A stretch of DNA of 64,000 nt from an uncultured bacterium. GTDB lineage: Bacteria > Actinomycetota > Thermoleophilia > Solirubrobacterales > 70-9. The stretch is from assembly GCA_963803305.1 (NCBI GenBank), contig CAWDLT010000009.1:333347-397346 (forward strand), given 5' to 3'. Each line of letters starts with the position of its first letter. Position 1 is the stretch's first letter. Of this stretch, positions 14,902 to 50,598 are shown in pieces. The notes under the pieces were generated by a model. That model had not been told where the DNA came from. It searched no databases and saw only the letters and a list, made by a program, of their open reading frames with translations. The position numbers and the translations under genes were made by a program.

Positions 14902-15015
14902 CTAACCCTGCCGTTGCTTGTGTCGCGGGTTCGAGCAGATGACCAGCACGACGCCGCGCCGCCGGATTATCCGGCAGCGCTCACACATCGGCTTTACGGA
15001 CGCTCGAACCTTCAC
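14902..15015 (-). CDS. rpmJ: 50S ribosomal protein L36 (zinc-ribbon form); too short for the ORF track
   Basis: Manual translation of the minus strand gives (M)[36 protein letters not shown]-stop. The GTG start has an AGGAG 7 nt upstream. Confidence 0.9.
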
Positions 15016-15025
15016 CAAAATCTCC

Positions 15026-15145
15026 TGCGGCTGCTTCGCCGCCTTGACTGCTGCTGCCGAGACACTTGTGTCTCGGCCCAAACAAACTCTTGCGGCCGCT
15101 TCGCGGCCTTACCTGCTGCTGCCGAGACACTTGTGTCTCGGCCCA
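15026..15145 (-). repeat. Family-E tandem repeat (2 x 55 nt, period 65), each unit with two GC hairpins
   Basis: Units 15026-15080 and 15091-15145 differ at ~4 positions. Each contains ccgagacacttgtgtctcgg (9-bp stem) and a ggccgc..gcggcc-type hairpin. Confidence 0.75.
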
Positions 15146-22192: not shown

Positions 22193-22369
22193 ATCACCAA
22201 CTGCACATGCTGGTCGCGGCGCCGTTGCGTACGCACATCGCCTCTTTCATAGTCTCTGGTTTCGGCACCGCGCAACATCTCCAGCTACACATGCTGCTCG
22301 CGGCGCCGTTGCGTACGCATGTCGCCTCTATCGTGGTTTCTGGTTGCGGCACCGCGCATCAATCCTTGT
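22193..22369 (-). repeat. Family-B intergenic hairpin element, two tandem copies (rpsN-rpsH spacer)
   Basis: Each of 22193-22280 and 22281-22369 contains cacatgctg(g/c)tcgcggcgccgttgcgtacgca...ggtt(t/g)cggcaccgcgca. Confidence 0.75.
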
Positions 22370-48731: not shown

Positions 48732-49162
48732 CACTCGAGACCCTCCACGTCGACCCCCATCGAGCGCGCCGTCCCGGCGATGATCCGGGATGCGGCGTCG
48801 AGGTCGTTCGCATTCAGATCGGGCATCTTGCGCTCCGCGATCTGACGCACCTGGGCGGCGCTGATCGTTCCTACCTTGTTGCGGTTTGGCTCGCCCGAGC
48901 CCTTCTCCAGGCCGATCGCCTCCTTGATCAGGACGGCGGCCGGCGGCGTCTTGGTGATGAACTCGAACGATCGGTCCTCGAATACGGTGATCTCGACCGG
49001 GATGATCGTCCCCGCGTCCTGCTGGGTCTGGGCGTTGAACGCCTTGCAGAACTCCATGATGTTGACTCCGTGCTGACCCAGCGCGGGGCCGACCGGCGGC
49101 GCGGGGTTCGCGGCCCCGGCCGGGATCTGGAGCTTGATCAGTGTGAGGACTTTCTTCGCCAT
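48731..49162 (-). CDS. rplK: 50S ribosomal protein L11
   Basis: Starts [40 protein letters not shown]. Confidence 0.95.
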
Positions 49163-49186
49163 CGGTGGGTGAGCTTAGGGCGTCTT

Positions 49187-49465
49187 CTTACTTCTGAATC
49201 TCTTGCGGATGCCTCCGGCATCCTTACATGCTGCTTTCGGGGCTAAAGCCCCTCATCGGGACCAAGAAGATCTTTCAGATTCTCCTGAATACCTTGCGGA
49301 TGCCTCCGGCATCCTTACATGCTGCTTTCGGGGCTAAAGCCCCTCATCGGGACCAAGAAGATCTTTCAGATTCTCCTGAATACCTTGCGGATGCCTCCGG
49401 CATCCTTACATGCTGCTTTCGGGGCTAAAGCCCCTCATCGGGACCAAGAAGATCTTTCAGATCTT
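49187..49465 (-). repeat. Family-C perfect tandem repeat, ~3 x 91 nt, between nusG and rplK
   Basis: cttgcggatgcc recurs at 49202, 49293 and 49384, and the copies look identical by eye. Each unit has the hairpins ggatgcc-tcc-ggcatcc and ggggct-aa-agcccc. The array abuts the nusG stop. Confidence 0.9.
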
Positions 49466-49978
49466 CTTCACCTGGTCGTACCCCACCTCGACGGGCGTCT
49501 CGCGGCCGAAGATCGAGACGAGCACCTTGAGCTTCGCCGCGTCCTCGTTGATCTCGGCGATCTCCCCGGAGAAGTCCGACAGCGGCCCGGAGATGACCTT
49601 GACCGTCTCCCCCACCGTGAACTGCGCGCGGCTTCGGGGACGCTCGGCGGTCTCGCGGTGAAGCAGCCGGTCCACCTCGGGCTGCGACAGCGGGATCGGC
49701 TTGTTTCGGGAGCCGACGAAGCCGGTGACCCCGGGGGTGTTCTTGACCAGGTTCCAAGCGTCGTCGGTCATCTCCATCTGAACCAGCACATAGCCGGGCA
49801 TGGTCCGCTTCTCGATCTGCACGCGCTGGCCGTCCTTGAGCTCTGACACCTGCTCGGTCGGAACCACGACCTGGCGCACCCTCTGGCGTTCGCCCATCGT
49901 CTCGATCCGGTGCTCGAGGTTGTGCTTGACCTTGTTCTCGTGCCCGGAATAGGTATTGATCACGTACCAGCGGAACAT
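49457..49978 (-). CDS. nusG: Transcription termination/antitermination factor NusG
   Basis: Starts MFRWYVINTYSGHENKVKHNLEHRI (NGN domain). The C-terminal KOW is GETVKVISGPLSDFSGEIAEIN. Confidence 0.95.
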   Translation of the reverse strand: MFRWYVINTYSGHENKVKHNLEHRIETMGERQRVRQVVVPTEQVSELKDGQRVQIEKRTMPGYVLVQMEMTDDAWNLVKNTPGVTGFVGSRNKPIPLSQPEVDRLLHRETAERPRSRAQFTVGETVKVISGPLSDFSGEIAEINEDAAKLKVLVSIFGRETPVEVGYDQVKKI

Positions 49979-50046: not shown

Positions 50047-50598
50047 CTAGAGGATTCGCTGGACGAGCCAGTTGAAGGCCGCGTCCAGAGCGCCGAGGTA
50101 GGCCGCCGCGACGGCGATGAACAAGAGCGTTACCGCCGAAGCCTGGATCAGCGTCTCGCGGTCCGGCCATTGGACCCTCTTCAGCTCTGCCCAGCAGGAG
50201 ACCAGGAACCCGATCACCGCGCCGCGCTGTCGCTCCTGCGGCTCGGCGGGGGCGCGGCGGCGCTTCTCGGATTCCTTGCGGCGTCGCTCGCGGTCGCGCT
50301 CCTCGCGTCGCTTCGCCCGCCTGCTGGTGCGGTCGGTCGGCGCCTCGGGCGCAGCCTCGGCCGTCGGCGCGGCGCGCTTCTTCGCGGCAGGCTTCGCGGG
50401 CTCCGGCGACGATTCGGTCAGCGCCTCCAAGTCGGCTCCCTGCTCGGCGAGCTCGGCTTCTATGACGTCCGCGGACTCCGGAACCTGAGTTCGCTCCTGG
50501 GCGCGAACGTCGGCGTCTCGAGAGCGCTCGGCCTCGCGCGAGGCGCGCGCTTCGCGCGCTCGCCGCTCTGCCTTTCGCTGCGCTCTCGTCTTCGCCAC
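50047..50598 (-). CDS. secE: Preprotein translocase subunit SecE with a ~120-aa highly charged N-terminal extension
   Basis: The C-terminal VIGFLVSCWAELKRVQWPDRETLIQASAVTLLFIAVAAAYLGALD is SecE. The N-terminus is Lys/Arg/Glu/Ala-rich. Confidence 0.85.
   Translation of the reverse strand: MAKTRAQRKAERRAREARASREAERSRDADVRAQERTQVPESADVIEAELAEQGADLEALTESSPEPAKPAAKKRAAPTAEAAPEAPTDRTSRRAKRREERDRERRRKESEKRRRAPAEPQERQRGAVIGFLVSCWAELKRVQWPDRETLIQASAVTLLFIAVAAAYLGALDAAFNWLVQRIL

Follow-up and report, generated by a model that had tools for sequence, protein, structure and literature searches.

In the 64,000-nt stretch of DNA analysed here (the window), secE, nusG, rplK, rplA, rplJ, rplL and rpoB follow one another in this order on the minus strand, and the spacer that separates nusG from rplK holds a tandem array of three head-to-tail 91-nt units (Table 1). 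What are these units, where do they come from, and do they matter for the expression of the two genes between which they lie? The genome to which the window belongs (G000) is a 12-contig MAG of 2.99 Mb, and the array is situated in the interior of a 692-kb contig.

The nusG-rplK array and its units

The tandem triplet reported in the initial annotation is real, as TRF, a repeat search and BLAST agree. TRF detected a single array at 49194-49462 (period 91, 3.0 copies, 98% matches, zero indels, score 524), and the repeat search delimited three units (49191-49281, 49282-49372 and 49373-49463) that are pairwise 96-97% identical in that phase. When one unit was compared by BLAST with the whole genome, the inner 80-91 nt of the three units turned out to be 100% identical, with mismatches at the unit edges only, and partial matches to the unit were found inside other tandem arrays. 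The copies had been described as apparently perfect; since the mismatches are confined to the edges, this is correct for the 80-nt cores, which are identical in the assembled sequence, and not for the ~12 nt on the rplK side of the last unit, which deviate. The identity of the flanking genes is supported by Pfam matches on a related contig (L195): NusG/KOW on a protein identical to the NusG of the window, and Ribosomal_L11 on the rplK orthologue.

Both hairpins that had been noticed at first are present in each of the three units, GGATGCC-TCC-GGCATCC at 49207, 49298 and 49389, and GGGGC-TAAA-GCCCC at 49239, 49330 and 49421. The array also has the lower GC content that had been remarked upon (53-54% vs 60-77% in the surroundings), and the predicted RNA fold of the spacer exceeds shuffled sequences in stability (z = -3.8). 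The palindrome placed by the initial annotation at the end of nusG was recovered as a perfect 10-bp palindrome (AAGAAGATCT/AGATCTTCTT) spanning the stop codon, with degenerate versions (75%) at the unit junctions. It is a feature of the local flank, and an imperfect version is present in relatives in which the site is empty (G044).

Each unit is composed of a 17-nt linker (AAGATCTTCTTGGTCCC), a 65-nt element and a junction of ~9-12 nt (..AGGAGAATCTGA), the linker and the junction making up the only local flank in the unit (~26 nt). The first 11 nt of the linker are an inverted copy of the last nusG codons. The proposal that the repeats derive from the 3′ end of nusG is therefore valid for this ~26-nt part only (inverted copy AAGATCTTCTT, degenerate ...GAATCTGA); the 65-nt core with its two hairpins is unrelated to nusG and corresponds to an element dispersed throughout the genus. 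In the copy nearest nusG, the element consists of GGGGC-UUUA-GCCCC, the linker GAAAGCAGCAUGUAA, GGAUGCC-GGA-GGCAUCC and the tail GCAAGGUAUUC. The third copy ends with a 3′ tail (GCAAGAGAUUCAGAAGUAAG...) unlike that of the first two.

Table 1. Coordinates of the nusG-rplK locus in the window, and of other repeat families in the genome (contig:position).
Feature	Position	Strand	Basis or remark
secE	50598..50047	minus	
nusG CDS, 173 aa, stop TGA 49459-49457	49457..49978	minus	ORF list; codon-usage gene caller
Palindrome AAGAAGATCT-GAA-AGATCTTCTT enclosing the nusG stop	49446..49468	minus	Repeat search
nusG-rplK spacer, 294 nt	49163..49456	minus	
Tandem array, 3 x 91 nt	49191..49463	minus	TRF; repeat search; sense-strand reading
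Element copy 1, nearest nusG	49375..49439	minus	Covariance model R1, 85.3 bits
Element copy 2, identical to copy 1	49284..49348	minus	Covariance model R1, 85.3 bits
Element copy 3	49193..49257	minus	Covariance model R1, 84.5 bits
TAAGCT hexamer, 9 nt upstream of rplK ATG	49172..49177	minus	Candidate -10 box
rplK (L11) CDS, 143 aa	48731..49162	minus	ORF list
Arrays of period 74-78 nt	C2:423924-424344; C4:7903-8297; C6:277469-277796; C6:636554-636929; C9:404160-404528; C9:602888-603292		C9:404160-404528 lies ~7 kb past the window end
GAATAACTCCGCCGGCTGCTCGCCTTCGGCTCCGCTGCCGGCGGGTT family, examples from many loci	C1:56196; C10:104984; C2:317177; C6:374000; C9:213563		

Sequence and structure of the element

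The shared core, ~65 nt long, reads on the nusG sense strand UGAGG(A/G)GC-UUUA-GC(U/C)CC, followed by GAAA-c-n-GGC-n-UGU-n-A, a GC-rich hairpin of 6-7 bp with a GNA loop, and GCAAG-nn-AUUC; the consensus of the element is UGAGG-a-GC-UUUA-GC-u-CC GAAA cnGGCnUGUnA GGgcGCC-GNA-GGCgcCC GCAAG nnAUUC. Both hairpins covary. In a set of 119 distinct copies taken from many genomes, pairing holds for 98.8% of the stem cells, and double changes, affecting both sides of a pair, are present in 8 of the 12 stem pairs (83 cells), whereas control registers slid by 1-3 columns pair at merely 45-57%. G-U pairs are almost absent (4 of 1386 stem cells), so that nothing marks the structure as specific to RNA rather than formed at the DNA level. 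Palindrome-correcting template switching is an established mechanism, and it could likewise yield such double changes. Conservation across genomes exceeds 90% in the unpaired UGAGG, GAAA and GCAAG and in the loop UUUA.

In some copies, hairpin 1 is directly flanked by GAUGA on its 5′ side and by GAAA on its 3′ side, an arrangement (..GAUGA-stem-GAAA..) resembling the CUGAUGA-stem II-GAAA of hammerhead ribozymes, and the tandem layout recalls that of satellite ribozymes. That each unit is a hammerhead-like self-cleaving ribozyme is nonetheless extremely improbable: no ribozyme family was matched in Rfam at E<=10, the columns equivalent to C3/U4, 5′ of the UGA, are merely 47-57% conserved, and no stems I/III or cleavage-site context can be drawn, RNAalifold giving two independent hairpins and nothing more. 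The array was unmatched by any Rfam family, whether the whole window was searched at gathering thresholds or positions 48900-49700 at E<=10, and scans for canonical sigma-70 promoters and intrinsic terminators found none. We also discarded a coding reading, with an ORF bridging the flanking genes in the manner of MIRU: the AUG-initiated frame in the array stops after 10 codons inside the unit, no ORF is conserved, and the periods of the arrays (91, 89, 68 and 65) are not multiples of three, the 91-nt period shifting the frame.

An intergenic element dispersed in one genus

A genome-wide TRF census indicates that the genome is rich in intergenic tandem repeats. The element is present ~21-25 times at 11 intergenic loci (21 strong copies with nhmmer, 25 matches with the covariance model R1), in arrays of 1-4 units with periods of 62-110 nt. 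These loci are nusG-rplK (three copies), atpH-atpA (one full and one further unit), sucC-sucD, ftsI-murE, an ABC ATPase-permease spacer, the region upstream of lepA (four copies, antisense) and five other spacers. The UGA of the element's UGAGG is the stop codon of sucC, ftsI and the ABC ATPase gene; an AUGA overlap is present in occasional copies only (e.g., C9:77040).

Using a codon-usage gene caller that had been validated on the window, we sorted 93 arrays by their genomic context; they comprise 143 copies, with a few loci represented in duplicate, and come from G000, G023, G006, G010, G004 and other genomes. None of the 89 arrays with two callable flanks is located inside a gene. Between co-directional genes, 42 of them are in the sense and 24 in the antisense orientation, while 12 lie between divergent and 11 between convergent genes, a split that roughly follows the proportions of these spacer types in the genome (68/16/16%). 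The sense bias is 42:20 after removal of duplicates (binomial p = 0.007, orthologous loci not being independent). More than 85 unrelated spacers hold the element, in both orientations; the copies are mostly found within ~10 nt of the upstream stop codon, and the arrays are all head-to-tail on one strand.

Model R1 had 2-82 matches per genome in 21 of the 24 genomes from the same genus, and produced two weak matches only in 16 genomes from other families of the order. A scan for exact motifs in the genomes of 185,579 species retrieved only MAGs labelled Solirubrobacterales, Actinomycetes or Actinomycetota, many of them from the MFD series, and the relatives identified through NusG bear the same labels. 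A literature search on intergenic repeats of Solirubrobacterales found nothing relevant. To all appearances, the element family has not been described before, and it is restricted to a single genus-level group of uncultured Solirubrobacterales from soil.

The element, whose ends have only TGA/TCA in common, showed neither terminal inverted repeats nor target-site duplications; the filled and empty nusG-rplK sites are too diverged to define a duplication. Neither the Y1/RAYT transposase (PF01797) nor TnpB (PF07282) was detected in any of the 25 genus genomes (0/25 for both, with positive controls), and an origin from RAYT or IS200-IS605 elements was rejected on these results. Since such termini and a mobilising enzyme were not found, it is only from its patchy distribution that the element can be called mobile.

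Copy number varies and the copies evolve in concert

The initial annotation had proposed a search for copy-number variation among strains. Across species and samples, 0, 1, 2 or 3 copies are present at nusG-rplK. In the 72 relatives found via NusG, the spacer is typically ~30 nt long and empty, and the closest of these relatives (L021 and L022, with NusG 97-98% identical) carry one copy directly after the stop codon. In a genus-wide DNA search, the spacer was empty (9-39 nt) in ten genomes; it contained a single copy in G049, G019, G016, G053, G002 and G020, two in G056, G023 and G003, and three in G000 and G006, whereas four genomes had unrelated larger inserts. We also examined the contigs coding for an exactly identical NusG protein (L195, L196, L197 and L198). 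The closest nusG found (96.6% nucleotide identity) is that of L197, which has a single copy with the same tail as the last unit of the window. L196 and L198, from two separate metagenomes, exhibit a three-unit array with a different phase and a 71-nt period, and L195 carries an array of the G006 type (3 x 89 nt).

G006 represents a different species (95.0% DNA identity for nusG, 92.8% for rplK and 91.8% over 3 kb, both proteins being identical), and its array of 3 x 89 nt agrees with that of the window in the phase of the units and in the junction (..GAATCTGA/AAGATCTTCT..). The units of the two species differ at 8-9 positions (~9%), and each difference is fixed in all copies of its species. 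Arrays that are self-identical and yet differ between species point to homogenisation or repeated re-amplification, in support of the first interpretation of the lack of divergence (a very recent or actively homogenised amplification), and argue against an assembly artefact.

An artefact of this kind, in which the true locus would have one copy, had been raised as the other possible explanation of the lack of divergence. The identity of the copies would agree with it, and a contig built from short reads (L198) is interrupted within an array of comparable type. We consider it very unlikely, because homologous arrays of two (G023, G003 and G056) and three copies (G006/L195 and L196) are present at nusG-rplK in independent assemblies from other species and samples, the array lies in the interior of a 692-kb contig of a 12-contig MAG, and the last unit bears its own distinct tail. 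Moreover, assemblers are generally prone to collapsing repeats of this sort, not to expanding them.

The array could be older than the split between G000 and G006 and have been continually homogenised since, or it could have been re-amplified independently in the two species; the junction common to both species favours the first scenario. A tree of nusG and rplK (948 nt) groups G000, G006 and G049 (support 100/97), with G049 beside G006 and G000 outside, and it fits a single triplication in the ancestor, followed by collapses, as well as two expansions that took place independently. Copy number varies at other loci too: the locus C9:152560 has three copies in G000 and two in G006, and the lepA locus four and three, respectively. 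The element at atpH-atpA is orthologous in at least six genomes (G000, G003, G006, G010, G014 and G022), its partial units varying in number and period.

Two further observations concern the spacer in relatives. In G056 (contig L171), it contains two elements of different subtypes, which enclose a copy of the original nusG end (AAGAAGGTCTGA), and the UGA of the first element now terminates nusG; clearly, an insertion has hit the last codons of an essential gene here and replaced its stop codon. In L176 (G004), L179 (G013), L182 (G054), L023, L025, L030 and L084, the spacer is 0.8-1.4 kb long, apparently with an inserted gene, so that nusG and rplK are not always adjacent.

The region upstream of rplK

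The nusG-rplK spacer had been pointed out as the usual place of the L11-L1 operon leader, with the site of autoregulation by L1. Its position upstream of rplK is all that would speak for the array being an rplKA leader or holding an L1 binding site, and we attach almost no probability to this reading. In most of the ~90 relatives the spacer is 9-39 nt long and empty, which indicates a lineage devoid of an L1 leader at nusG-rplK, with no room for one. Furthermore, the element is present at dozens of unrelated loci in both orientations, and no ribosomal-protein leader family was matched in Rfam at E<=10.

The sequence that precedes rplK suggests another organization. A TANNNT motif is present at -20 to -5, without a Shine-Dalgarno sequence, before rplK in 65 of 74 relatives. 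Its TANNCT forms (TAAGCT, TACCCT, TACGCT and TAGCCT) are located 9-13 nt before the rplK ATG; the hexamer is always kept, downstream of the insertions, and in the shortest spacers the TAG stop codon of nusG forms part of it. TANNCT may be the -10 box of an rplKA mRNA that is nearly leaderless and starts downstream of the array, which also argues against a leader; if this is correct, the array would sit upstream of the rplK transcript. The AUUCA tail of the element was tried as a -35 box at a constant distance from TANNCT and rejected, the spacing being 17-18 nt in some species and 8 nt in others.

Origin and possible roles of the array

The array is likely to be a variable-number tandem repeat (minisatellite) made of a dispersed two-hairpin intergenic element plus local flank. 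The element settles in short spacers, mostly right at gene ends, where it often provides the TGA stop codon of the upstream gene. At nusG-rplK, one copy of ~65 nt would have been duplicated along with ~26 nt of local flank, presumably by slipped replication or unequal recombination involving short direct repeats at the end of nusG. The copies of an array would stay identical as unequal exchange or gene conversion goes on, and the copy number would drift among lineages, giving the range that is seen at this locus. The element is tolerated between co-transcribed essential genes, suggesting that it probably neither terminates transcription nor blocks translation downstream, and it is presumably neutral for the expression of nusG and rplK.

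Alternatively, the element could be a selected cis-acting RNA module that stabilises 3′ ends, serves as a processing site or insulates cistrons from each other, with a copy number that tunes the nusG:rplK ratio. REP sequences of Escherichia coli play such roles between cistrons. The proximity of most copies to the upstream stop codon, the 2:1 sense bias, the high conservation of the unpaired motifs, the stable predicted fold and the maintenance of a three-copy array in two species are in line with this alternative. We nevertheless consider it unlikely. About a third of the copies between co-directional genes have the antisense orientation, 12 are situated between the starts of divergent genes, the split over spacer types matches their abundance, and the rarity of G-U pairs carries no mark of structure at the RNA over the DNA level. 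In addition, close relatives manage with 0 or 1 copy at nusG-rplK, and the scan for canonical terminators was negative.

A selected function, as an RNA or in protein binding, would likewise agree with the conserved unpaired motifs and the sense bias, and selection on copy number might account for the presence of three copies in two species. In view of these conserved motifs, we leave a slim chance to the hairpins having a selected role in the stability or processing of mRNA 3′ ends. We give an equally small probability to a selected two-hairpin module whose UGAGG, GAAA and GCAAG would be read by a non-HUH factor, either of the host or element-encoded, the copy number representing a heritable rheostat. 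In that case, the homogenised number of copies, three in two species, would set the expression of secE-nusG versus rplKA through 3′-end stability, processing or promoter spacing.

Related and additional repeat families

As stated in the initial annotation, the array shares ACATGCTGCT with the 84-nt repeat at 22193-22358 (family B), the motif being present in the TRF consensus of both units. Family B and a second repeat of the window, at 15015-15142, carry the linker motif of the element ((A)GCAGCAUGU / AGCAGCAGUU). The latter is a tandem of 2 x 65 nt on the minus strand, before rpmJ, with weak matches to model R1 (27.8 and 17.5 bits); it has the linker AGCAGCAGUUAAGG, a second hairpin and GCAGGAG in common with the element and differs in the first hairpin. 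These similarities suggest a modular superfamily that would include the 15015-15142 repeat and to which family B may belong.

Six near-perfect tandem arrays of another type were observed in G000 outside of the window, with a period of 74-78 nt and ~4-5.5 copies each (Table 1). Four of the six start inside the 3′ end of a tRNA gene (T-arm and acceptor strand), namely Arg-CCG, Ala-TGC, Thr-CGT and Phe-GAA. Their unit combines the 3′ segment of the tRNA with a shared module of ~50 nt (..CAGGATCGAACCTGTGACACCGCTCGCCCTCCGGGCTCGCTG) that holds an inverted T-arm-like stretch, and these arrays look like a repeat family associated with tRNA 3′ ends. Another abundant family of tandem and interspersed repeats, with units of 60-98 nt, contains GAATAACTCCGCCGGCTGCTCGCCTTCGGCTCCGCTGCCGGCGGGTT.. 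and is present at many loci.

Implications

Ordinary repeat dynamics thus explain an odd feature beside core translation genes, and the tempting interpretation as an L1 leader is removed. The analysis defines an apparently new, genus-restricted family of structured intergenic repeats, with a covariance model and a consensus, and presents the nusG-rplK spacer as a recurrent landing and expansion site. The array itself is a clean natural case of a very short bacterial tandem repeat evolving in concert, its units being identical within a species and divergent between species. The loci of the element could serve as VNTR markers to track strains of these soil bacteria, which are abundant, and annotation pipelines should beware of them, since the element gives rise to spurious ORF calls such as MRSFSSETR...

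Comparison with known repeat systems

The MIRU and MIRU-VNTR loci of Mycobacterium, reportedly described by Supply et al. in 1997, resemble the element in several respects. In both cases, units of the 40-100-bp type are arranged head-to-tail at many dispersed intergenic sites, often inside actinobacterial operons; the copy number varies between lineages, and the repeats are tolerated beside essential genes. The end of the element also overlaps stop or start codons of its neighbours, as do MIRU (the UGA of sucC, ftsI and the ABC ATPase gene, and one AUGA). However, MIRU are described as being without obvious palindromes and as having a single orientation relative to the transcription of adjacent genes (PMC5056196), and they contain a small internal ORF that is translationally coupled to the flanking gene by a -4 overlap (PMC12548453). 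Unlike MIRU so described, the element has two covarying hairpins, is inserted in both orientations (42 sense vs 24 antisense, or 20 once deduplicated) and lacks a conserved coupled ORF.

Similarities with the REP/BIME sequences of enterobacteria and pseudomonads are of a different nature. Like these, the element consists of short GC-rich imperfect palindromes confined to spacers and reaches a high copy number (up to 82 matches per genome); it is present in both orientations, often clustered and often just after stop codons, and compensatory changes maintain the pairing of its stems. In contrast with REP/BIME, it is not accompanied by a Y1/RAYT gene in the 25 genus genomes, its consensus starts with UGAGG and has no conserved 5′ GTAG, its arrays are strictly head-to-tail rather than alternating in orientation, and its unit combines two different hairpins joined by a conserved linker. 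The best reading of these comparisons is that the element behaves like an interspersed repeat of the MIRU/REP type while being a member of neither family.
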